DNA of 64,000 bases. Source: Escherichia coli (GTDB lineage Bacteria > Pseudomonadota > Gammaproteobacteria > Enterobacterales > Enterobacteriaceae). A program made the translations under genes and the position numbers. The stretch is taken from the NCBI RefSeq assembly GCF_003018255.1, contig NZ_CP027440.1; one strand, given 5' to 3'. Positions 5,529 through 49,965 of the stretch are shown piece by piece (positions within the stretch are counted from its first letter, which is position 1; each line of letters starts with the position of its first letter). The notes under the pieces are model-generated. The model was given only the letters and a program-made list of their open reading frames with translations, did no database searches and was not told the origin of the DNA.

Positions 5529-5890
5529 AACAACCTCTCTTATAATTATGGGTATTCTACGGAAACAATATACCGTGGTGAAGCTAATTTACTCGATTGC
5601 TGCGATGACTACCTCCGGGGGACAAACCTTATGTAAATACTATGGTCCTGCGGTGATAATTTGTATGTGATACACAGCAACATTTCGAGATATTCATACG
5701 GCATCTAATACTGATTTAATTCTGGTTAAAATACAGACAGATAACAAGATGAATATTCTTAATGTTTACGTTAAAAATGTTTAATGTTATTTAATAGTTG
5801 TTAATTTGAATACTTCGATAATGTTATATTTCCTGATGATCATTTGCAGGCAAAATGTTTTCACCCTTAAATGAGTATTTATTCTCATAA

Positions 5891-6265
<375 letters not shown>

Positions 6266-29765: not shown

Positions 29766-30116
29766 AGATGCTCAGCAGAATCCCCCACATCCTGAAGGAG
29801 GTGTATTCAGACAGGCATCCCACCTGACTTCGAATGATGATTATTCATCACTATAGAGAGCAATGATTCTAAGTGTCATATGAAAGTTCCAATTGATATA
29901 TATCAAACAAAATAACCCTGATTAATGAATTATTACGTTTATCATGTTAACTCATCATTATTACATAATCATTGTAAATAATTAAATTAACTTCCATAAC
30001 ATTAAAATATGTATCCACTGACGCTTTTTTACATAACGAAGAATTGACCATTTTGTCCTGTTGTGCCTTAATGTAAGTACCGTCCACGGCGTGGGACATA
30101 CTTCAAGGAACCTTTT

Positions 30117-30308
30117 GTGAGTCAGGCAACCAGTATGCGAAAACGACACCGATTTAACAGTCGCATGACCCGTATCGTACTGCTCATCAGCTTTATCTTC
30201 TTCTTTGGCCGTTTTATCTACTCGTCCGTCGGTGCCTGGCAGCACCATCAGAGCAAAAAAGAAGCTCAGCAATCCACACTCTCCGTCGAATCACCGGTAC
30301 AACGTTAG
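30117..30308 (+). CDS. yfgG: Small protein YfgG (one TM helix)
   Basis: 63 aa; hydrophobic segment IVLLISFIFFFGRFIY; conserved position between pdeF and yfgH. Confidence 0.75.
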   Translation: MSQATSMRKRHRFNSRMTRIVLLISFIFFFGRFIYSSVGAWQHHQSKKEAQQSTLSVESPVQR

Positions 30309-30456
30309 CGGTTACCTTCTCCACTCTCACAGAACATAACGGCACCTCGCTGTCGGATGCTTTTGCTCTTTGGGATTATCAAAGCGGCAGATATTTTTTC
30401 ATCTTAAATTTTACGTTTTTGTCCTGACTGATGTTTATCCTGTTCGACTGCGAAAT

Positions 30457-30494
30457 AAATACATCATTAATACATATGTTGTGATGATGTATTT
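30457..30494. promoter_or_regulatory. Perfect 11-bp inverted repeat (aaatacatcat N16 atgatgtattt) upstream of yfgH
   Basis: Seen directly at 30457-30467 and 30484-30494, ~125 bp upstream of the yfgH start, in an AT-rich spacer. Confidence 0.5.
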
Positions 30495-30618
30495 TTATAA
30501 ATTATTTCCCGCATGAATTTTAATAAATTTAATCTATTCCTTTATACGCAATACATTTACTTTCCTCTTTTGATGATCTTAAATGTCTTATTTTTCGTAA
30601 TGTGTATAACAAGGAATA

Positions 30619-31137
30619 GTGATGAAATTTAAAAAATGTCTTCTGCCTGTGGCAATGTTAGCGTCATTCACTCTGGCAGGATGCCAGTCAAATGCTGATG
30701 ATCATGCCGCCGATGTTTATCAAACCGATCAACTGAATACCAAACAAGAAACTAAAACCGTTAATATTATTTCCATTCTTCCCGCAAAAGTTGCCGTAGA
30801 CAACGCCCAAAATAAACGGAACGCACAAGCCTTCGGCGCGCTTATTGGCGCTGTCGCTGGCGGTGTTATCGGCCACAACGTCGGGTCTGGCAGCAATTCC
30901 GGAACGACGGCAGGTGCAGTTGGCGGCGGAGCTGTAGGCGCGGCAGCGGGTTCTATGGTGAATGATAAAACCTTAGTGGAAGGTGTTTCTTTAACATATA
31001 AGGAAGGCACCAAAGTGTATACCTCCACCCAGGTGGGTAAAGAGTGCCAGTTTACGACAGGTTTAGCCGTTGTTATTACCACGACGTATAACGAAACACG
31101 TATTCAGCCAAATACCAAATGTCCTGAAAAGAGCTAA
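30619..31137 (+). CDS. yfgH: Outer membrane lipoprotein YfgH (glycine-zipper)
   Basis: 172 aa; lipobox TLAGCQS; Gly-rich segment GALIGAVAGGVIGHNVGSG. Confidence 0.85.
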   Translation: MMKFKKCLLPVAMLASFTLAGCQSNADDHAADVYQTDQLNTKQETKTVNIISILPAKVAVDNAQNKRNAQAFGALIGAVAGGVIGHNVGSGSNSGTTAGAVGGGAVGAAAGSMVNDKTLVEGVSLTYKEGTKVYTSTQVGKECQFTTGLAVVITTTYNETRIQPNTKCPEKS

Positions 31138-36503: not shown

Positions 36504-39500
36504 TTACTGGAAGCAGGTCACCAGACCCGGTTTATTTTTTATTAGCGTGATACTACAATCCTGCGCTCCAGTACCTTCGTCCATCCCACACTGTTGAGAG
36601 GACAAATAAGGAAAACTGGGTGAAGACGGCCATCCCAGTGAATTAAAAACAGTATGCAACAACTCTAATTCATTGTATGTCGGTGCATTTTCTATGCTGC
36701 CACACTGCCTTGCGATATCCCATTTACTGGCATCAATGATATGTGCAGAAGCCCAGTTTTCGTAGTTAATAATCGGTGAGGATACGGGATTAGCCCCGGA
36801 CGGCAATTCCGTCGTTAACAACGGTCGATGTAGCGATTTACTAGTCACCACTACCGTGTCTGCCATATGTCCCCAAAAGTGCGCCGATGAAACATTTGGG
36901 CTGGTTGGCACCGTAAAAATAGCATCCAGCGTGTCTGTCGCGGAAGCGTAATTAGCCAGAGTAACCGTCAGTGGCATTTTATAACCAGGGGTATTATCCT
37001 GGCGGAGCGTAAAACTTGCCGTCCCATCCGCGCCTGTCATGCCACTAATGGTATTACCGCTTTCACTCAGCGTAACAGCCGAACCTGATAACGGCTGAAC
37101 GACGAGATCGTCCATCGCCACTACATTGCCATACAACGTTGCCCCAGCGTTACGCGGCGATGCCTCACCACGTTTCAAAGTAAATTCAACATTCGGCACC
37201 GTATTCCCGGCGCTGTCTTTCACCGTCACGGTTACGGACATGGCTTCGCCTTTTTTCACTTTCGCCGCCTGAGTGGCTGCATCAAACGCTGTTGAGGTAA
37301 GTGTGACGCTGGAAACGGTTGAACGCGCGTTAGCCAGGCAAGGCTGAAATGATTTTGTTGAACCCGTATACAGCGTGCCATTTCTCAAATCAACCGACTG
37401 GTCTTTACCATCGGCGGATTTATCCTCTGCCCACCAGGTGTAATACGCAGGCCAGCCAGTTTCAGTGACAAACGTGTTATTCGGATAACGCGCAGACAAC
37501 GAACTTAAATCATTGAATAGTGGCTGCCTTGCTACTTCACAAGGGCTCACACTCGCATCTGATTTCTGTGTTGGGGTAAAGTACGGCCAGTCTTCATTAT
37601 TGTTATTGATCTTGCCGACGCCAGAAGTCGATGTCAGTTCACTCCACAATTTCGGGCGTTCAAATACCGCACCATTCACTGCCGTCAAGGTTGCTGGCAT
37701 ATGCCCCCAGTAGTTAGCCTTCGCAGAATCCGGGCTGGTCACTACCGTGAATATCAGGTCCTGATTAGCCGTAACCTGCGGATTTCGCGCCAATGAAGCT
37801 GTAAACGGCGTTACCAGACCGACGGTGTTATTTTGGGTAACGTTGAACGTTATCGTGCCATCACTGCCGGTGAAGCCGCTCCATGCCGACGTATTCTGGT
37901 TGAAGGAGATACGCGCCGATGTTGGGGTGACTTCATCTAAAATGAGATCATCTACGGTATTGGAGGATACAGAGATCCCTGAACGGCTTTTCGCCTGCAC
38001 GCGCTTGAGCGTAACACCTTCGCCGCCAACAGGATTACCATTGGCATCTTTGATCGTCACCACGATGGGAAGCATCTCACCTTTTTTCACAGATGACGTG
38101 GGGGTACCACCATTGCTGGCAGTTCGGCCCTCATCATAGGCAGTCGATGACAGCGTAAGGCTTGCTGGTGCCGAATGTGGCTGCGTCAGACAGAGCATTA
38201 AAGCGTATCCATTAATAGTCGTCGTCGATTGTCCCGTTTTCAAATTAATGACGCCGTAATACCACGTCAACGCGTCAGTGGTGCTCATTTCATAAGTCCA
38301 CCAATTTCCACTTCCGGCAGTTATAGGCAACCCCAAATCTGTCAGTATTGTCCCGCCTGGATGATCATTATATAGCCCCTGTAACTCATTGAGACGCGGC
38401 TGATACTCAACCGGGCAATCCGGCGTAACTTTATTGGTATAAAAAAGGTATGACCACGACTCATTATTATTACTTACCGAGGACCCCAAGGTCGCTTCTG
38501 CTGCCAGTAGCGGTCGTTTAAAGGTCACCCCCGCCCTACTGGTAAACGTGTCGGGCATATGACCCCAGTATTTTGCTTTCGGTGAGTTCGGACTGGTTAT
38601 CACAGTGAAAATAACATCCATCGTGGCACTTTTTGTGGTGTCGCGCATCAATGTTGCAGTGAGCGGAGTTGCCAGCCCATAAGTCTCGTTTTGCGTCACA
38701 TCAAAAGTCGCTTTACCATCACTTCCTGTCGTCAGAAGTGCCTGTGCCCCATTATTATAGAGTGACATGTTTACTCCGGCAGGGGTGACCGGCACGATAG
38801 TAAGATCATCATACGTAGAATCTAGCCTGTTTTTTGCACGATCCAACGCAGTCCCGCGTATGAGATTAAAGTTTGCGCCTGGCAACAGATTTCCTCCGCT
38901 ATCCCGCACAATCACCGTCATCCGGATCGCCGTACCTTTCGCCGCCGTTGCACTAGGGCGACCATCGTTGCTGGCCGTTTTCTCCGCATCCAGTGCCGTG
39001 GAGGTCATCTCTATAGAAGCTGCCACTGCATGAGGGTTTACCAGACAGGACACAAATGCCACGGTGTTTGATAATGCCCTGGAGCTTGATCCATTCGATA
39101 AATTAATAGACTGATCGTACCAGACGTTCGCGTAGGCAATTTTATCGTAAGCCCACCAGGTGTTAGTCAGCGGAAGGCCTAAATCGGTCCCTATCGCACC
39201 ATTAGGATGTTCACTGTATAACTCTTGAAATTCGCTTAATAACGGTTGATAAGGTTCGCCGCAGTCTGATTTGCTGACATCATTTTTTGCTGCCGTATTC
39301 AAAGAAAGCCATGATTCATTATTAGCCATGGTTGACTGCCCCGCTGGATGCTCGGCAGTAAGCAATGGCCGCTTAAAGGCAATTCCCGACCGGGTAGTAA
39401 ACGTTTCAGGCATATGCCCCCAGTAACTTGCCAGTGGCGTATCCGGGCTGGTTATGACGGTAAACATGACCGGTAATTTGTTGGATTCTATCGTCAGCTG

Positions 39501-42500
39501 ATACAACTGGGCGTACATATTGGTTACCAGGCCCATAGAATCATCTTGTTTTACCGTAAAGGAGGTAGTCCCGTCCGCGCCAGTCACCCCATAAAGCAGG
39601 CTTGAAGAACTATTCATCCTCGCAGAAGCGCCTGCCGCGTTAATTACCGTAATCGACTTATTTATCATCTCGGCATTTTGACGGTTCTTCGAGCCTTCAC
39701 GTCTGAGAATAAAGGGGACATTGGGCACGCTATTTCCCTGCGTATTTTTAGTCACCACGCGAATCACCGCGTCTTCGCCTTTTTTCACTTTCAACGCACT
39801 CAAGGTGTCGTCAACTTTGACAAATTGCGCCGTATCATTCGCCTCAACAATGATCTGACTGGCAACGGCGACAGGCGTGGTCCGGCAGCTCAGTAATGCA
39901 CCACCAGATGAGGGCATCTGCGTTTCATCTCCTGTCTTCAGCGAAACGACATCATACGTAAAGGTTTGAGTGAACGTATCTGCAACGGTATTCGAGATAT
40001 AGAACCTCGACACTGGCCAGCCAATAGCATCATGTAATGCGCTACTCCCCTGGTGCGCATAAATGGCCCTAAGTTCATTGTCAGTTGGAACATACTCCGC
40101 GCCACAACCATTTATCGAGGTATCGTTAGCCTGGCCCGACGGGAACGTAGACCAGGCCTCCCCCTCTTCCACCAGGGTACCGATACTGGTGGTAGCACTA
40201 TTCTCGTCCCTCAGCAAAGGCCTTCGATAAATAAGACCGTCATCGCCTGTCGCCGTTTCAGCCATATGCCCCCAGAATTTGGCTTTTGGCGAATCCGGGC
40301 TGGTAAGCACCGTAAAGACAACGGGAAGCGTCGATTTAGTGCTGCTGGAGGAATCCAACGCTGCCGTGAGTTCTGTTTTTAGCCCGGTAGTCTGGTCTTG
40401 CTTCAATGTGAAAGTGGTGATGCCATCAGCCCCCGTCACGCCATAAATAACCAGGGTCGTTGAAAGAAAATCATCTTGAGTATTTCCCCAGGCATCCGTT
40501 ACCGCCAGCGAAGCAATCGACGTCGTAGTTGACACATTGGCCCTGTTCACGCTGGTGTTTCGTTTGAGGGTAAATGCGGTATTTCCCACAGGGTTACCCT
40601 GCGCATCTTTAGTGGTCACTCGTAATACGGCTTCTTCGCCTTTTTTCGCTTTGACAACATTATTCGTACTGTCAAATTTTGTGGGGTCTGCAGCTTCAAG
40701 AACAATTTGGCTTGCCTTAACAATCGGCGTCGTCTGGCAGGTAAGCAGTTCTTTTGTGGCAGATGGAATTATCGAACTGGTGCCTGAACTGAGATTGACG
40801 GCCTTGAAGTCACGCTGTTCCAGGCTACTACTACCTGTTGTGCTGGAAAGGTAACTTGAGGCGACGGGCCAGCCCTGAACCGTTTTCATCGCATTGCCGC
40901 GGTTGGCTTCATACAATGACTCCAGCCCGGCCTGGGAGGGAACATATTCACTACCACAACCATTAGAGGCTGTGCTTATAGCCTGGGTTTGGGTAAATTG
41001 CGCCCAGTCTTCATTCTCTTCTGCAATCGCTGTTCGACCCGACGTACTGGATAACTCTTTCAACAATAATGGGCGTTTAAAGACCGTTCCATCTGCAGCC
41101 GTCACTGTTTCAGGCATATGCCCCCACATTTTCGCCTTATCGCTGTCCGGGCTGGTGACAACGGTAAAAATGGTATCGAGGGTCGCTTTTTTCGTTGTGT
41201 CTGAATAGAGCGCGACGGTCAGCGACGTTTTTGTGCCATGGGTATCCGGGCGGGTAATAGTGAGAATTTTAGTGCCATCGCTGCCGGTCATCGCGCTGTA
41301 TGCTGCGGCGGTATCATTGAGCGAAGTTTCATCCGCCAGGCCACTATTGATCACAACCGGCGCAACCAGCGCATCACCGCCACCGGCAATGTGTTTTTCG
41401 TTTGATCGGGTATAACCATCGCCACGCTTCAGCGTAAAAGGCATATCACCCAATGGATTGCCCTGAGCATCTTTTACCGTCACCTTCACCTGTAGCGTTT
41501 CGCCTTTTTTCAGCTTCGCCGCATTTGCTGCCGCGTTCCACTGCGCCGGGTCCACCACTTCCAGCGTAATGCTGCTGGCAGGATTGTTAGCCGTCGTCAG
41601 GCAACTGACATAAACCGCCGTGCTACCGCCAACGGTCCGCGCGCCATCGTTGAGGGCTATGGTGTAGTAATGCGGCACCTGATCCGCGGGCGAACTGCTC
41701 CAGTAGGGCTGACGCTGCGTTGGCCAACCGTGTACCGTTTGAACGGCGTTACCGCTGTTAGCATCATAGAGCGCGTTAAGCTGGGAACGGCGTGGGAGCA
41801 TATTGGCACCACAGCCACCTTTACTGGTGCTGGAAGTGTTGGCCTGGCTAACGCGCGACCACACTTCGTTATTTTCCGTTAATGTGCCGTCCGGGCTGGA
41901 CACTTCCGCAGCCAGCCGGGGTCGGGCAAAGGTTAATGCATCGACGGTAATCGTCTCATCCATATGACCCCACATCTGCGCGCCAACCGCATCCGGACTG
42001 GTGAGCGTAGTGAAAATCACATTGTAATTAACAGTATTGGGAATATAGGAGTTTACAGGCGCAATATTCAGCGGCGTCGCTAAGCCCACACCTTGCGGTT
42101 GCTTAATTTCCACAGTAGCAAAACCCTGCGCATCCGTAGTACCGGCATAGACTAAAGACGGTTGCGATGTTCCGTAGAGTGTGCCATTCATCTCGATTGC
42201 GCCGCGGGTTGGATCATCAAAACCTGTAGTCTGCCCCTGACGATTTTTCCCCATATCTTTAGTGATGGTGAACGCGGTATACGGCACGGGCGCATTATTC
42301 AAGGCATTAAAGGTGCGTACCGTCATGGTAATCGTTTCACCCTCTTTAGCCTGCGCTCTGCTGCTTGTGGAAACATCATGATCGGTGGTCGCAGCAATCT
42401 GGGCGACCATCTCATTGCCCGAACAAGAAAGGTAGTTTTGCTTAAAGCCGGAATAGGTGTCGATGTTGCCCGTGGCCAGGTTCACCGACGCGTGCGACGT

Positions 42501-44558
42501 CTCTTCCACCGCACTAAGATACGCTTTTTGCAACGTTGGCCAGCCATATTCGGTGCCGATGACATTGGCTGGATGTGCGGCAAACAAACTGTGCAATGAG
42601 CTTTGGCTCGGAATATGACCTAAACCACACTCAGCCTGCATACTGCTATTCTGATCAAACAGCGCCCAGTCTTCGTTATTTTCCCGCACTGCTCCCAGTT
42701 CGTTGTCGGTTTCATCCGCCAGCCGTGGGCGTTTAAAGATATTATTCGCTTCAATAATGCCTAACATATGTCCCCACATCCGCGCTTTGTCGGAATCAGG
42801 GCTGGTGATCACCGTAAAAATAACGTCTTTCTCATCCGAGGCGGTAAAATCACTGCGCATTTTCGCGGTGATGTGTGTTTTCACCCCCACGCCGCCTGGC
42901 TGGGTCAGCGTCAGAGAGGCCTCTCCGTTAGCATCAGTGATCCCTTCATAGGTATGCGCGTCAACTTTGCGAACGTTACTGCCACCATCAATTTGTACCG
43001 GATGCGTCTCCCACGCAGCGTCAGTTTGATTCTTACGGTTAACACCGTCATCCAGATGCAGCGAAAAGTAGTAGTAAGCCAGCGGCTGATCGTTGTTCTT
43101 GCTATCGGTAATCGTCAGGCGTAAAGAAGCCTCTTCCCCCACCTTTACTTTCATCGCTTTTATCGTCGAATCATAACTGCCCGGCGTCAGTACCAGCTTC
43201 GGTTCAACATCGGGCGCTTCTTTATCGACACAGCTCACAATAAACGTCGTATCGTCCGGTTTTTGCGCTTCGCTGCGGTTCGAAACATCCGCCGCATGGT
43301 GCTGCCCGCTCATCCCCGCCAGTGATGACCAGTAGTAGTTACCCTGCATCGGCCAACCAGCCACATCCTGCACTGACGTTGGCACCACCGTCGCCAGCGC
43401 ACCGAACTGACGCATTCCGGGCAAAATGTCGCAATGTTTATCCGCACCACTCCAGGTAAAGGTGGACCAGGTTTCATTGTGATCGTTAACCGTACCGTCT
43501 TCATTATCGACTTCCGCCGCCAGTTTTGGTCGACTAAAAGTGTAATCACGGGCCTTCAGCGTATCGGGCATATGACCCCACATTGTGGCCTGCGGGACAT
43601 CCGGGCTGGTGAGGACGGTAAAGATCACTGCCGTTTCACTGGTCTGAGCAATACCCGCGAGGCTCGCGACCAACGGCGTTTTTACACCAGGGGCGTTGGC
43701 CTGGGTGACCGTAACCGTGGCAACACCATTCGCATCGGTAGTACCACGATATTCCGTCGCGGTGGTGGTTAATTCGGTCGTGCCCAGTTTTACCGGCGCA
43801 GTATTGTTCACTACACCCTGGCGGTTTTCAGCATCTTTGCGTTTGATAACAAAAGGAATATTCCCCACAACATTACCGACGCAATCTTTGGTGGTGACCG
43901 TTAACGTGATACTGCCGCCAACCGTCGTTTTCGCCGCACCGGAGGATTCGTCATAGCCCGCGGCGCTGACGGAAATAAGGTCACCCTGCGCGGGCGCAAT
44001 CTTCAGCGTCACTTTCTGATCGGCGAGGGTCAGAACACTTTCATAGGGATAGCCCGTCGAGGTAAGTAGATATAACAGCGGCATGGTCTGCTGGGGGTCT
44101 GGCTGCGCCCAGGCGATCAGCGAACGCCCGGCAAGGCCCTGTGCGCAAAATGAGCGATCTGCGACTGGCTGTGGGTCCAGTAAGGTGTCCGGCGTCGCGG
44201 CATCCGCCCAAACTAAAGATACTGTCGGTGGCGTTTGGTTTTCCCAACGTGGTGTGGCAATGATATCGCCTTCTCTGTCTTGCGGGTTGGTGACGAGCAA
44301 TTTAGAGACGCTAACATCCGCGCTGAATTCACTCGGTTTAGCGGTAAACGCTACCTCATGCGTCTTTGCAGGATCCAGAAAGACACTGCCCTGGTAGACG
44401 GGTATGCTGGCACTGTCGGCGGTGGGCACGGTACCGTTAAATTCGCCGACCGTATCTGAAGAGTCTTGCCATGCAGATTCTGCCCATGCCCCCCCAGGCA
44501 GCATTGCGCTTATCAGCAATGCGCAAAACACAAGGATTTTATTCAGGGTCAGGGACAT
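36504..44558 (-). CDS. ratA: Giant repetitive surface protein, RatA-like (signal peptide plus nine ~270-aa Ig-like/lectin-like repeat units)
   Basis: 2684-aa ORF with ATG at 44556-44558 and GGAG Shine-Dalgarno; signal peptide [26 protein letters not shown]; nine units each carrying ...FTV(I/L/V)TSPD...WGHMP... and a downstream Cys pair; T/S/N/G-rich. Last gene of the sinH-sinI-ratA arrangement. Confidence 0.8.
36750..43650 (-). repeat. Nine tandem, diverged ~0.80-0.86 kb intragenic repeat units within the ratA-like gene
   Basis: The DNA motif CATATG(A/C/T)CCCCA (encoding WGHM on the minus strand) recurs at about 36865, 37698, 38557, 39411, 40263, 41115, 41962, 42766 and 43569. Confidence 0.85.
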
Positions 44559-44678: not shown

Positions 44679-45656
44679 TTATTTGTGTTTGTAAATAATG
44701 TGAAGTTTGTACCCCTGTACCCCGTCGCCGTTGGTCGGGATGGTAAGAGCTTCTTTACCATCGCGCGCAGGGCCGTTAAGGTTGGTTCTGGCGTCTTCGT
44801 TGGTCGCAGGGATGACCAGATTGTTATTATCGAAGCTTGAGTTGACGATACCACCCGAGGTGCCGAGCTGTTGGCTGCTGCCAGAAAGTACCCAACGGAA
44901 GTCATAATTGGCGGTAACGTCAGCATCGGTATCCGCATCAAACTTGCCATTTTTGTTCTCATCCGAGTACAGTTTGGCCACGTAGGTTTTGCCAAGTTCG
45001 ATTGGCGTACTGCCGTTGATAAGGTTGATACTGGTACCATCAACAAAGATGGCGACTTTCAGGTTCTGGTTAACTACCGGCCCTGGCGCAACGTTGTCGC
45101 TGTCGCTTCCGCCGCCGCTGGCAGTGGAAATGTCATAAAGATGCAGCGCAGTCCCGACGTTTGGCGTACCGGTCTGCGTGGTCGGCGTAATTTCAATACC
45201 GATATAACGACCACGGTCGTCATCGGTAAGAGTGTAACTGGTCACCTTCGTTGCCAGCTCTTTCGGATCGCCCCCCTGAGCGTCCTTGTAGCTCATCCAG
45301 CGGATAGTATCGATAGTCTTTGCGTTATCGCCCAATCCCCCAAGATCCACGTCGCCTTCGGTATCACCAATTTCCCAACTTACGGTTAATTTATCACCCG
45401 AGTAAAGACGCTTGTCCGTTTCACTGCCTGTCGGGCGAGCGCCTTTTAGATCAGAAGTCAACGTTACATGGTCGGCATCTGTCGTAGCGCTTCCCCCTTC
45501 CGAATAGAGCCACGGAATGGTTCCCTGGAAAATATTGGTTTCGCCGCTGTCGACCCAGGCGCTTTCTTCCGCCAGCGCCACAGGTGCCACACAATAACCT
45601 GCCAGTGCCAGCGCCAATGCGATCCGGGTCAGACCGCGTCTTTTATCCTGCTTCAT
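44679..45656 (-). CDS. sinI: SinI-like secreted protein (signal peptide; C-terminal domain paralogous to the SinH C-terminus)
   Basis: 325 aa; ATG at 45654-45656 with AGGAGA Shine-Dalgarno; signal peptide ...ALALAGYCVAPVALA; C-terminal ~110 aa aligns with the SinH C-terminus (LVIPATN, GDGxQGY motifs). Confidence 0.7.
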   Translation of the reverse strand: MKQDKRRGLTRIALALALAGYCVAPVALAEESAWVDSGETNIFQGTIPWLYSEGGSATTDADHVTLTSDLKGARPTGSETDKRLYSGDKLTVSWEIGDTEGDVDLGGLGDNAKTIDTIRWMSYKDAQGGDPKELATKVTSYTLTDDDRGRYIGIEITPTTQTGTPNVGTALHLYDISTASGGGSDSDNVAPGPVVNQNLKVAIFVDGTSINLINGSTPIELGKTYVAKLYSDENKNGKFDADTDADVTANYDFRWVLSGSSQQLGTSGGIVNSSFDNNNLVIPATNEDARTNLNGPARDGKEALTIPTNGDGVQGYKLHIIYKHK

Positions 45657-45710: not shown

Positions 45711-47888
45711 TTATTTTTTGGTATACAGCACGCGTAAACCGTATCCCTGCAAGCCATCTCCCGCTTGTGCGCCATAGGTTTGCGCTGCTTCGCGGTTAGT
45801 GGCCGGAATCACAATGTCCTCATTGGAAGAGTTCGCCTGTGCACCCACTTCACCATTGATGCTCTTGCCGGTAAATTCCCACTTGTAGTCGTACTGCGCC
45901 ATCTCTTCGTCAGTCAGTTTTTCGACCTGCTGGAAGACACCGTCTTTATTGCTGTCACGCCACAAAACAAATCGATAAGTGTTGTTGAGCGGCAGCGGTT
46001 CTTTATCTTTACCTATCAGGTTGCTGGGTTTAGCTGCCCCCACACGATAGATAAATGCATTTAGCCCACCAATTTCTGCCCCGAGGAAAGTGACATCCAC
46101 ATAGTTACTGTCGTCGTAGGGCGCAGCTTTTGCTTTCCAGCGATAGGTGCCGGGTAAGGTACTGGAGAGGGTGACAGTGCCCTTTTCTTTATCTTGTTTA
46201 GCGATAAAAACGCAGGGGTTGTCGGTCGAGCAAGGCTTGTTGGTTAACGTCACTCGTTTGTCCTGCGCGTCGTAAAGCCGCGGCGTGAGGTTATCTTCCG
46301 GCAGCGCATCGCCATTGCGGTCGGTGTTATCGCCAAAGCTGTCGGTTACATCGAGATCCATCACCACACCATCAACGCCATCTGCCTGGGCGCTGGCTTC
46401 GTGGCTGTGGTTGTTCTCTTCCGGCACGTTCGCGATGTTATTAACAATCAACTCAATTTTACGGTCCTGCTGAACGGTGATTTCCACCACACCAGAGTTC
46501 TGTCGGTTGCCCTTTTCATCTTCCAGTGCCAGACGTACTCGCCAGGTATTGAGTTTTTCTTGTTCGGCTTTGTCAGAGCTGTACTGCCAGGCGGGCAGCA
46601 CCAGGTTCCAGTGGTTATTGTTACCCTCTGTCAGGGTATTCTCTTTGATAACCGGCATAACCAGCGTGCGGGCAGCATTGTTTTTCGCCTGCCATGACGC
46701 AGCGACAATTTTGTAGTGGTGGTTGATAAGCGCGTTAATGGTCCACTTACATTTTTCCAGCCCGACCGCCGCTTCAGGCGTATCTTTAATGACACACTCG
46801 GGGTGTTCGTTGGTGGCATCCGCTTTTAACCACAGGGTGACATCAAGCGGATCTTTTTCTTTGTATTCCAGAACAATAAAGTTATTACGCTCAACAAAAT
46901 CATGACGACTGCCCATCAACGAGTGAGCCGCTTTCACTTTATCGCTATCCAATTGATCTTTTAGCGGAACGCCGAACTGATAATTAAGAGTGGCATTAAT
47001 GCTGACATCGCTGTTATCTCCGGTCCCCGCTTTATAGTCCGCCCCAACGGTTAGTAATGGCACCGGTTGATAATTCAGTCCAAGTGTTACCGCGTAGGGA
47101 TCTTTCTCCAAATTATCCGTACCAAAAAGGGCAACTTCATCGCCGTAATATTGCTCGAAGACAACTTTGCCCCCCAGTTGCGGATAAGAAGGTAACCAGG
47201 CTTCGGCGCGAATATCCCAGCCGCGCGCAGGACGCTCCTCATAAAAATCGAAATCTTCGGAGTCTTTCCAGTCAGAAAGCGGATGATAATAGTTGCCAGA
47301 GAATTTTAAATAATCAGTCCACGCTTCGCCGCCTAAACCTAAACGGCGATGTCCTCGGGTAAAATCATAATCATAAAATATATTCCCGCCCAATAACCAT
47401 TCATTAAAATTATGTCTTACCCCAAGACCAATATTCCCGATTGTACGATCTTCTTTTCGCTGCGCAGAAAATTGACTGAAATAAACAGTGGTTTGATTAT
47501 CGTACCAGGGAACAAAATAATCGATGGAACTGCCATCCAGATCGCCGCCCTGGCCAATGGAGAGGTTCGAACGGACCTTACCGTAGGGAGAGAGAGTGTC
47601 TTCAATATAAGATTGTGCGGTTGAGGTGATTTGACTTTGCAGATAGCTTCTGGCCTGAGATTCCAGCGCCTCAGGGGTCAAGTTTTCAAACCCTTGCGTG
47701 GCGGAGTTGATGATGTAATCGGCTCCGCGCTCTTTCAGCGATTTACCCTTGTTGGTTTGTTCATCCTGCTGTGCTGCCTGGCTACCTAAATCAGGTAACG
47801 ATTCGTTTTGCTTAACATTTATCTCTGGTGCCGCGAAAGCAGCACCAGAGATAAATGTTAGAATAATACAGCGTTTCCATCGCAGCAT
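45711..47888 (-). CDS. sinH: Intimin/invasin-family inverse autotransporter (SinH-like)
   Basis: ORF track starts at a TTG (47918); probable ATG start at 47886-47888 (MLRWKRCIILTFISGAAFA, signal peptide) with AGGGA Shine-Dalgarno. N-terminal region with alternating aromatic beta-strand pattern typical of the intimin/invasin beta-barrel, followed by Ig-like passenger domains. Confidence 0.8.
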   Translation of the reverse strand: MLRWKRCIILTFISGAAFAAPEINVKQNESLPDLGSQAAQQDEQTNKGKSLKERGADYIINSATQGFENLTPEALESQARSYLQSQITSTAQSYIEDTLSPYGKVRSNLSIGQGGDLDGSSIDYFVPWYDNQTTVYFSQFSAQRKEDRTIGNIGLGVRHNFNEWLLGGNIFYDYDFTRGHRRLGLGGEAWTDYLKFSGNYYHPLSDWKDSEDFDFYEERPARGWDIRAEAWLPSYPQLGGKVVFEQYYGDEVALFGTDNLEKDPYAVTLGLNYQPVPLLTVGADYKAGTGDNSDVSINATLNYQFGVPLKDQLDSDKVKAAHSLMGSRHDFVERNNFIVLEYKEKDPLDVTLWLKADATNEHPECVIKDTPEAAVGLEKCKWTINALINHHYKIVAASWQAKNNAARTLVMPVIKENTLTEGNNNHWNLVLPAWQYSSDKAEQEKLNTWRVRLALEDEKGNRQNSGVVEITVQQDRKIELIVNNIANVPEENNHSHEASAQADGVDGVVMDLDVTDSFGDNTDRNGDALPEDNLTPRLYDAQDKRVTLTNKPCSTDNPCVFIAKQDKEKGTVTLSSTLPGTYRWKAKAAPYDDSNYVDVTFLGAEIGGLNAFIYRVGAAKPSNLIGKDKEPLPLNNTYRFVLWRDSNKDGVFQQVEKLTDEEMAQYDYKWEFTGKSINGEVGAQANSSNEDIVIPATNREAAQTYGAQAGDGLQGYGLRVLYTKK

Positions 47889-48097
47889 GCACTTTCCCTG
47901 TGACAATGATACAGTCAAAAATAAGCTTTAATATTGTATCCCTGATTATTCAGAAAGGCATGTCATAAAGAATAAATATACTCTTAATTATTTAAATTAG
48001 TGATTTCACTCAATTACATTAGTTATTCCACTAATAACAGATTGTTTTACCATTCACATATTAAATATAAATGATAAAACAATATATTCACATGATA
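47889..48097 (-). promoter_or_regulatory. AT-rich upstream/promoter region of the sinH-sinI-ratA cluster
   Basis: ~210-bp spacer between the yfgJ stop and sinH start, visibly much more AT-rich than flanking coding DNA; no other promoter-sized gap before sinH. Confidence 0.5.
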
Positions 48098-48313
48098 TTA
48101 AGCAATAACAAATTCAACGCGTTTTTTAGATATTAAACCGTGCCCATGTTGGCAGAAATAATCCACAACACCACAAGCTTTTAACACTTGTAACGGCTGA
48201 TGACACTCAGGGCAAAGTGCCTGGACGGTAAAGTCTTTGTCGCAAGTTGCACAGTGGGCAGTCTCGCCATTGCGTTCGAGAGGGATTTTGCAGGTTGGAC
48301 AGTTGAGTGCCAT
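48098..48313 (-). CDS. yfgJ: Zinc-ribbon protein YfgJ
   Basis: 71 aa with paired CxxC motifs (CPTCK...CATCD...CPEC...CQHGH). Confidence 0.85.
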   Translation of the reverse strand: MALNCPTCKIPLERNGETAHCATCDKDFTVQALCPECHQPLQVLKACGVVDYFCQHGHGLISKKRVEFVIA

Positions 48314-48336
48314 AAATACTCCTCACGTGTTATTCG

Positions 48337-48366
48337 GTTTCCCTCTCCGTGTGGAAAGGGAAACCA
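48337..48366 (-). terminator. Hairpin between der and yfgJ (attenuator/terminator-like)
   Basis: ggtttccct ctccgtgtgg aaagggaaacc, a 9-bp stem. Confidence 0.5.
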
Positions 48367-48375
48367 GATAAGTGA

Positions 48376-49848
48376 TTACTTACTTTTCTTGATATGCTTC
48401 ATCAGGCGCTTACGTTTACGCATCTGGGTTGGCGTCAGGGTGTTACGCTTGTTCGCATACGGGTTTTCCCCTTCTTTGAACTGAATACGAATCGGCGATC
48501 CCATTACGTCCAGCGATTTGCGGAAGTAGTTCATCAAGTAACGCTTGTAGGAATCAGGCAGGTCTTTCACCTGGTTACCGTGAATCACCACAATCGGCGG
48601 GTTATAACCACCAGCGTGGGCATATTTCAGCTTCACACGACGACCGCGTACCAACGGCGGTTGGTGATCTTCAACAGCCATCGTCATGATGCGCGTCAGC
48701 ATAGAGGTCCCCACACGACGGGTGGAGCTGTCATACGCTTCACGTACTGATTCAAACAGATTACCAACACCACTGCCGTGCAAGGCTGAGATAAAATGCA
48801 CACGAGCAAAATCGATAAAGCCCAGACGGAAGTCCAGCGTTTCTTTCACCTGCTCTTTCACTTCCTGGCTCAGGCCATCCCACTTATTCACTACAATGAC
48901 AAGTGAGCGCCCACTATTGAGAATAAAGCCCAGCAACGAGAGATCCTGATCGGAAATACCTTCGCGGGCGTCAATCACCAACATCACCACGTTGGCATCT
49001 TCAATGGCCTGCAACGTTTTGATTACCGAGAATTTCTCTACAGCATCGGTGATTTTGCCGCGTTTACGTACGCCAGCGGTGTCAATGAGCACATACTCAC
49101 GTCCGTCGCGTTCCATTGGAATGTAGATGCTGTCACGCGTCGTGCCAGGCATGTCGTAAACAACAACGCGCTCTTCACCAAGAATACGGTTCGTGAGTGT
49201 AGACTTACCTACGTTCGGACGACCCACAATCGCCAGTTTGATCGGCAGACTTTGCGGGTCGAAGTCATCTTCCTCTTCTTCTTCGCCGTTTTCTTCTGCT
49301 TCAAATTGCGCCCAGTATTCAGCGTCTTCATCCACTTCTTCTTGTGGTGCGAGATCTTCCATCCACGGCAGCAGCACGTGCTCCAGCAGACTTAATACGC
49401 CACGACCGTGAGACGCGGCGATCGGGTAGATTTCCCCTAAACCAAGCGAGTAAAAATCAACTACCGCCTGATCAGGATCCAGCCCGTCAGTTTTGTTTGC
49501 CACCAGGAAGGTTGGCTTTTCGCGGGAGCGCAGATGTTTAGCAATAGCTTCATCCGCAGGCATCAGACCCGCGCGCGCATCGACCATAAACAGCACAACG
49601 TCCGCTTCTTCAATCGCCAGCAGCGACTGTTCCGCCATACGTGTCTCTACACCGTCTTCGGTGCCATCAATCCCGCCAGTATCAATACAAATAAACTCGC
49701 GGCCTTCAATTTCTGCACGACCGTATTTACGGTCACGAGTCAGACCTGGGAAATCCGCAACCAGCGCATCTCGTGTGCGAGTTAGACGGTTAAATAACGT
49801 GGATTTTCCTACGTTAGGGCGCCCGACAAGCGCGACCACAGGTACCAT
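48376..49848 (-). CDS. der: Ribosome-associated GTPase Der (EngA)
   Basis: ORF 48376..49887; probable start at [20 protein letters not shown]; two tandem GTPase domains (GRPNVGKS twice) plus C-terminal KH-like domain; 490 aa. Confidence 0.92.
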
Positions 49849-49965
49849 GTTTAAAGCCTCATTTTTATAAATCATCAGACAACGCACGCTATATTCGTGT
49901 CGTTGTTAAAAACAGGAAAACGGCCCCTGTCCAGGAGCCGTTTTCAAAGTGAACGACAGAGACGA

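Follow-up and report, generated by a model that had tools for sequence, protein, structure and literature searches.

The 209-bp spacer between yfgJ and sinH is, in our assessment, probably a regulatory region that is silenced by H-NS and StpA and opened by LeuO, serving the adhesin genes sinH and sinI and perhaps also the ratA-like gene beyond them. In this model, the extreme AT content and TpA density of the spacer would attract H-NS and StpA to a local patch, which would cover a weak sigma-70 promoter (predicted -10 TACAAT at 47938-47933, with a poor -35) and thereby keep sinH essentially silent in laboratory culture. Expression of sinH would then need an anti-silencer or an activator, LeuO being the one demonstrated experimentally. 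LeuO would probably act through GAATAT-type half-sites and a palindrome located just downstream of the yfgJ stop codon, and a second factor may bind a conserved box at -63 to -46.

Composition and conservation of the yfgJ-sinH spacer

We analysed a 64-kb stretch of DNA, here called the window. Its minus strand carries, in this order, bamB, der, an allele of yfgJ, sinH, sinI and an 8-kb adhesin gene, which meets xseA. The features of the locus are the following:

48376-49887, minus strand: der
48098-48313, minus strand: the sinH-linked yfgJ allele, encoding a double zinc ribbon protein of 71 aa and named c3032 in strain CFT073
47889-48097, minus strand: the yfgJ-sinH spacer, probable regulatory region of sinH (iatB), 209 bp, 24.9% GC
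45711-47888, minus strand, ATG at 47888: sinH (iatB), an intimin-like inverse autotransporter of 725 aa, from Pfam IAT_beta and the RefSeq annotation of near-identical genomes
44679-45656, minus strand: sinI
36504-44558, minus strand: the giant, ratA-like 8-kb adhesin gene beyond sinI, followed by xseA

The assignment of SinH to the inverse autotransporters rests on its IAT beta-barrel, which matches PF11924 over residues 63-336 (E = 1.7e-108).

An earlier note on this DNA, made by eye, had described a leader at 47889-48097 that is far more AT-rich than its surroundings. These coordinates are exact, the sinH ATG lying at 47888 and the yfgJ allele starting at 48098, and calculation agrees with the eye. 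The spacer has a GC content of 0.249, compared to a mean of 0.515 (sd 0.052) for the 209-bp windows of the 64-kb stretch, just 0.17% of which are as low, and the GC profile is non-uniform, with its global minimum (0.22) at 47905, inside the spacer. Twelve neighbouring intergenic regions have between 38 and 63% GC, indicating that the spacer is more than generic AT-rich intergenic DNA. TpA steps make up 13.5% of the spacer compared to 4.4% window-wide, an enrichment of approximately three-fold. The predicted curvature, which the note had proposed to compute, turned out to be merely moderate: in a wedge model, the bend of the spacer averages the 88th percentile and peaks locally, at 47917, in the 97th.

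The arrangement of yfgJ, spacer and sinH is found in Escherichia (including E. albertii), Citrobacter, Pseudocitrobacter and Superficieibacter; Salmonella sinH was not recovered by the genome scan. Across 16 lineages from these four genera, the spacer measures 186-221 bp and has 19-31% GC, while the genes that flank it have 40-52% GC. The retention of length and AT-richness over such a long evolutionary distance points to a function of the spacer rather than to a recent xenogeneic origin.

Occupancy, silence and induction of sinH

The binding of H-NS and StpA at this locus can be read from the ChIP-seq data of Hustmyer et al. 2022 for the UPEC strain CFT073 (PMC9765446, Data set S1 sheet 1E). 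The spacer of this strain measures 208 bp and shares 96.7% identity with that of the window. With a bound-gene cut-off of 0.07 of the maximal signal, sinH is listed as occupied by H-NS (0.116) and StpA (0.100), and c3032, the 216-nt yfgJ allele, shows considerably higher values for both proteins (0.407 and 0.367, respectively). The other genes of the locus, namely guaA, guaB, xseA, two downstream island genes and der, are absent from the bound list, in which the rows flanking sinH and c3032 are yfgH and yphF (PMC9765446). The strong signal on c3032, its dilution over the 2.2 kb of sinH and the lack of signal beyond them point to a bound patch that has its centre in the spacer. Judging from these per-gene values, the patch would extend over approximately 0.5-1 kb. 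The high-affinity H-NS nucleation motif TCGATAAATT, which is not obligatory for H-NS binding, has no match with up to two mismatches within 47889-48097.

The window contains other sharp low-GC dips (approximately 24% GC). One of them, 5585-5995, is the region around acrD, ypfM and dapE; two more, 29774-30130 and 30323-30724, correspond to the pdeF, yfgG and yfgH region as mapped by the coordinate offset to CFT073. Both yfgG and yfgH are also in the CFT073 list of H-NS-bound genes (PMC9765446), suggesting that the low-GC dips of the window predict H-NS occupancy well.

The expression of sinH was studied by Goh et al. 2019, who renamed the E. coli gene iatB (PMC6714894), in strain SMS-3-5, whose spacer is 82.9% identical to the window's. 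In the wild-type strain the IatB protein was undetectable in every culture condition tried, and a chromosomal iatB promoter-lacZ fusion was silent in culture (PMC6714894). A screen of approximately 30,000 Tn5 insertions yielded 12 independent up-mutants of this fusion. All 12 carried the transposon in the leu region upstream of leuO and pointing towards it, and no hns insertions were reported among them (PMC6714894). Goh et al. inferred that the insertions raise leuO transcription and confirmed the effect with a LeuO plasmid; overexpression of LeuO led to approximately 15-fold more iatB mRNA in SMS-3-5, the protein still being undetectable (PMC6714894). We found no hns-mutant expression (derepression) data for sinH in the searchable literature. 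It has also been reported that sinH is up-regulated during human urinary tract infection and that sinH and sinI are co-transcribed, and 78% of the E. coli LeuO targets are co-regulated by H-NS.

The occupancy in CFT073, the silence in culture and the induction by LeuO thus lend support to the suggestion of the earlier note that this is an H-NS-repressed adhesin promoter, and the rise of iatB mRNA on LeuO overexpression supports its further suggestion that the promoter is inducible. From these observations we infer that H-NS is the cause of the silence.

Predicted promoter, LeuO-like sites and hairpins

To locate the elements on which these proteins would act, we combined a PWM scan with phylogenetic footprinting, which replaced a strict consensus scan. 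Counted from the predicted transcription start, the elements nearest to sinH are:

47895-47899, minus strand: Shine-Dalgarno sequence AGGGA, 6 nt ahead of the sinH ATG, within the conserved motif CAGGGAAA
47933-47938, minus strand: predicted sigma-70 -10 hexamer TACAAT (5/6), from the PWM and cross-genus conservation
47956-47961, minus strand: weak -35 candidate ATGCCT, 3/6 to TTGACA, 17 bp upstream of the -10
47972-47989, minus strand: 18-bp conserved box at approximately -63 to -46, with consensus TTTTAGGAATTTATTTAG and window copy AATTAAGAGTATATTTAT

TACAAT is the top PWM hit when the local composition is taken as background, and TAnAAT is present at the same aligned column across genera, within a conserved GGAATAcAAT block. 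Transcription is predicted to start near 47926, which would give a 5'UTR of approximately 38 nt. The -35 candidate is poor and is not conserved among the lineages, which suggests that the promoter is activator-dependent. For a weak promoter of this kind an empty strict scan is expected, and indeed the strict consensus scan for promoters and terminators returned nothing in the spacer on either strand.

The 18-bp box is a candidate site for an activator or anti-silencer. It matches its consensus at 15-18 of the 18 positions in 12 of the 16 lineages, and its distance to the -10 downstream of it is 33-34 bp in most; the copy in the window is the most degenerate (12/18). A sigma-E reading of the box (GGAAyTT) was rejected by eye, given that TCTGA is found at a spacing of 23 nt instead of approximately 16 and that the downstream element is unconserved. 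Likewise, a sigma-54 site at Salmonella sinH in a published ChIP-chip table was judged irrelevant to the spacer.

Natural variation also touches the promoter. In the AR_0055-type allele (locus L026, in the 90.4% identity class) the -10 is the consensus TATAAT and the leader carries a 3-bp deletion, and the basal strength of the sinH promoter may be higher in this lineage. The allele is common in our sample, with 12 of the 40 spread-sampled rows at 90.4% identity, and 645 genomes fall in the band of 90-95% spacer identity.

Further upstream, the spacer contains several repeats and a LeuO-like site:

47992-48032, minus strand: tandem direct repeat AGTGGAATAACTAATGTAA / AGTGAAATCACTAATTTAA, 19 nt with a 22-bp period
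48022-48038, no strand assigned: inverted repeat GTTATT-CCACT-AATAAC, noted earlier, present at chance frequency
48036-48088, minus strand: imperfect 24-nt inverted repeat forming an AU-rich hairpin just past the yfgJ stop, -25.6 kcal/mol, z = -5.7
48050-48068, minus strand: LeuO-core-like 7-5-7 site ATATTTA-atatg-TGAATGG, 11/14 to ATATTCA-N5-TGAATAT

The LeuO core was derived, following Fragel et al. (PMC6698644), by scanning the K-12 cas3-casA and leuL-leuO spacers, which contain ATATTCA-tactg-TGAATAT and ATATTGA-tttgg-TGAATAT, respectively. When the sinH spacers are scored against this core, Citrobacter sp. MGH106 reaches 14/14 and six other lineages reach 12/14 at about the same place, the latter with per-sequence P values of 0.002-0.016 against shuffled sequences. 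The copy in the window scores 11/14, which is not significant on its own (P = 0.12 against shuffles), and that of SMS-3-5 scores 10/14. In total, GAATAT/ATATTC hexamers occur 22 times in the 16 spacers against 7.0 +/- 2.6 expected, in counts that are not independent as the lineages are related. On these grounds direct binding of LeuO at the sinH spacer is plausible, if unproven.

It could be argued that specific factors, namely LeuO acting directly and/or a factor at the -63 to -46 box, are chiefly in control of the promoter, and that the binding of H-NS is a by-product of AT-richness with little effect on regulation. The poor -35, the constant spacing of box and -10 across four genera and the presence of LeuO-core-like palindromes would all fit such control, as would the outcome of the Tn5 screen, in which only leuO-activating insertions and no hns hits were obtained; the core of the box (TAAGAAT/TAGGAAT) may moreover resemble an RcsB half-site. 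We nevertheless consider this explanation unlikely: both H-NS and StpA strongly occupy the flanking 216-nt gene (0.41 for H-NS on a 0-1 scale), LeuO acts mostly at H-NS-repressed loci, and the upstream half of the spacer conserves AT-richness and not sequence, which fits a protein that reads composition. Silencing by H-NS and StpA, relieved by LeuO, remains our preferred reading.

Regarding the repeats, the earlier note had singled out short inverted repeats such as GTTATT-CCACT-AATAAC. This repeat does exist at 48022-48038, but hairpin-type repeats with 6-bp arms are at chance frequency, numbering 3 in the spacer and 1.36 +/- 1.44 in its dinucleotide shuffles (P = 0.19), and the quoted one is missing from distant E. 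coli alleles and from other species. Its 7-5-7 geometry fits LysR-type sites and its sequence mismatches the LeuO core, and we rejected it as a regulatory site on account of its chance level and lack of conservation. The two copies of the tandem direct repeat are identical at 16 of 19 positions, a level which none of 300 shuffles reaches, and the repeat is partly conserved within Escherichia. Its second copy contains the palindrome AGTGA-AA-TCACT (47999-48010, minus strand, approximately -83 to -73), which is partly conserved in Escherichia and replaced by TGTGTAAAGTCACA in other clades; its spacing is not that of a CRP site.

The inverted repeat at 48036-48088 is a candidate 3' hairpin of yfgJ, an insulator or an operator. 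A palindrome or hairpin past the yfgJ stop is present in most lineages, its sequence varying by clade and its start lying 10-37 nt, mostly approximately 30 nt, beyond the stop codon. In the AR0055 allele, the folded sequences show by eye one compensatory change from A-U to G-C. The scan found no intrinsic terminator after yfgJ, the hairpin being AU-rich and followed by a tail, CUGUUAUUAG, that has no U-run. The spacer between der and yfgJ (48314-48375) contains a GC-rich stem-loop past the der stop, GGTTTCCCTTTCC-ACAC-GGAGAGGGAAACC; the K-12 allele has another sequence there with an equivalent stem, CCATTCCCTCTA...TAGAGGGAATGG. This stem-loop has no U-tract, and the scan calls no terminator.

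A further structure is located within the sinH coding sequence:

47813-47860, minus strand: 22-bp near-perfect hairpin in sinH codons ~10-25, the signal-peptide cleavage region, z = -6.9

The 137-nt context of this hairpin folds at -50.6 kcal/mol, and in Escherichia its stability exceeds that of synonymous recodings (z = -3.5 to -4.3). Pseudocitrobacter and Citrobacter MGH106 have shorter hairpins of other sequence at the same place in sinH, and C. youngae, C. gillenii and Superficieibacter lack it. The hairpin may be an element of post-transcriptional control. An apparent second genomic copy ("2 places per genome") proved to be a match of the sinH hairpin to its own complementary strand. A search of Rfam at a permissive E-value returned nothing but spurious hits to microRNA models, driven by the two hairpins.

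More speculatively, the spacer and the first 75 nt of sinH could together form a deeply conserved multi-layer switch instead of a generic AT-rich silencer, an idea to which we give little weight. Its first layer would be the palindrome after yfgJ, at a roughly fixed place, with LeuO-type half-sites and doubling as an RNA hairpin; the second would be the 18-bp box at -63 to -46, conserved in four genera, serving an activator; and in the third, the 22-bp hairpin over the signal-peptide cleavage codons would limit translation or mRNA stability. If this were true, the hairpin layer would help to explain how mRNA can rise 15-fold without detectable SinH protein.

It is very improbable that sinH lacks a promoter and depends on read-through from der/yfgJ, the spacer being just the 3'UTR of yfgJ. 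Such an explanation would be consistent with the lack of a canonical intrinsic terminator between yfgJ and sinH and with the co-orientation of all the genes, and the published lacZ fusion, being chromosomal, is compatible with it. On the other hand, four genera retain the -10 and the box 40-110 bp ahead of the ATG, a hairpin is conserved after the yfgJ stop, and the housekeeping role of der contrasts with an undetectable SinH and a fusion that is silent in culture; these three observations together make transcription by read-through alone unlikely. H-NS, in addition, occupies the yfgJ-sinH junction.

Distribution of the segment, related promoters and significance

Of 5426 complete E. coli genomes, 1746 contain the spacer, with identities of 72-100%. 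Genomes of the K-12 type have a convergent 4-bp overlap of xseA with yfgJ, showing that the whole spacer is confined to genomes with the sinH segment, and homology to the K-12 type breaks and resumes exactly at the der stop. The sinH-linked yfgJ allele has approximately 50% DNA identity to the K-12 allele in its 5' half and 72-86% in its 3' half. It occurs in 1748 genomes, essentially the set that carries sinH, and this agreement with the 1746 genomes of the spacer indicates that the variable segment spans yfgJ in addition to sinH, sinI and ratA.

The earlier note had assumed a horizontally acquired adhesin operon, and this assumption holds in part. The variable presence among E. coli genomes speaks for it; against it, the island genes have ordinary GC contents (sinH 48.5%, sinI 52.8% and the giant gene 51.6%, compared to 51.5% for the window), xseA and yfgJ enclose these three genes alone, neither an integrase nor a tRNA being annotated, and the layout is common to four genera.

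Insertion sequences are found at the locus in two strains. In strain 200164, whose genome is otherwise 99.9% identical, an IS1 of 768 bp (locus L033, 665-1432) lies in the spacer, and its 9-bp target duplication corresponds to 48055-48063 of the window, the centre of the upstream palindrome, approximately 130 bp before the predicted start. In strain ESDR8 (L029), IS1 and ISKpn26 disrupt sinH itself. It is barely credible that island insertion left the AT-rich spacer as a neutral scar, or that it is a mere terminator or insulator with no regulatory role for sinH, for although it is confined to genomes with the sinH segment and, like a permissive AT-rich target, has taken up an IS1 in strain 200164, its length, composition and specific blocks are kept in 16 lineages across genera and the regulation of the locus by LeuO is published.

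A sinH promoter of the proposed kind, silenced by H-NS and StpA and opened by LeuO, would have several known relatives. The E. coli cas (casA) and leuO promoters are, like that of sinH, AT-rich, bound by H-NS, silent in culture and activated by LeuO. They share the LeuO core ATATTCA-N5-TGAATAT, and similar 7-5-7 sites occur in the sinH spacers; by comparison, the sinH site is predicted from sequence, is degenerate (11/14) and would lie approximately 120-140 bp upstream of the predicted start. We know of no counterpart of the -63 to -46 box in the cas and leuO promoters. The bgl operon also resembles sinH in being silent, in having an upstream AT-rich H-NS site and in the counteraction of its silencing by LeuO. 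It is activated by IS insertion, by LeuO and by BglJ-RcsB, and the IS1 in the spacer of strain 200164 recalls this activation by insertion sequences; no downstream silencer has been identified for sinH, in which it differs from bgl.

Among the adhesins, fdeC and yeeJ encode inverse autotransporters (IAT_beta) that are, like SinH, cryptic in laboratory culture, and yeeJ is regulated by H-NS. For fdeC, regulation by H-NS and temperature is stated in the title of a work cited by Goh et al. (PMC6714894). The case for H-NS at sinH differs from these two in being built on ChIP occupancy and the effect of LeuO and not on an hns mutant, and sinH has sinI and a giant adhesin gene downstream of it. The inv (invasin) promoter of Yersinia is silenced by H-NS/YmoA, with RovA as anti-silencer. 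As in sinH, an AT-rich region lies upstream of a gene of the invasin/intimin family and silencing is relieved by a DNA-binding antagonist, which belongs to the RovA/SlyA family in Yersinia and is the LysR-type LeuO for sinH. A further difference is that sinH is not known to be thermoregulated.

Both the control of sinH by LeuO and its occupancy by H-NS and StpA are already published, and the promoter is a silenced adhesin promoter of a known kind. It will not surprise specialists, and it opens no long-standing question. Our analysis adds a modest and testable map, comprising the predicted -10 and start, the conserved box and the LeuO-like palindrome, together with two natural variants, the TATAAT -10 of the AR0055-type allele and the IS1 of strain 200164. 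Because SinH contributes to the fitness of extraintestinal pathogenic E. coli and is a vaccine candidate, the timing and mechanism of its expression bear on vaccine coverage and on infection models.
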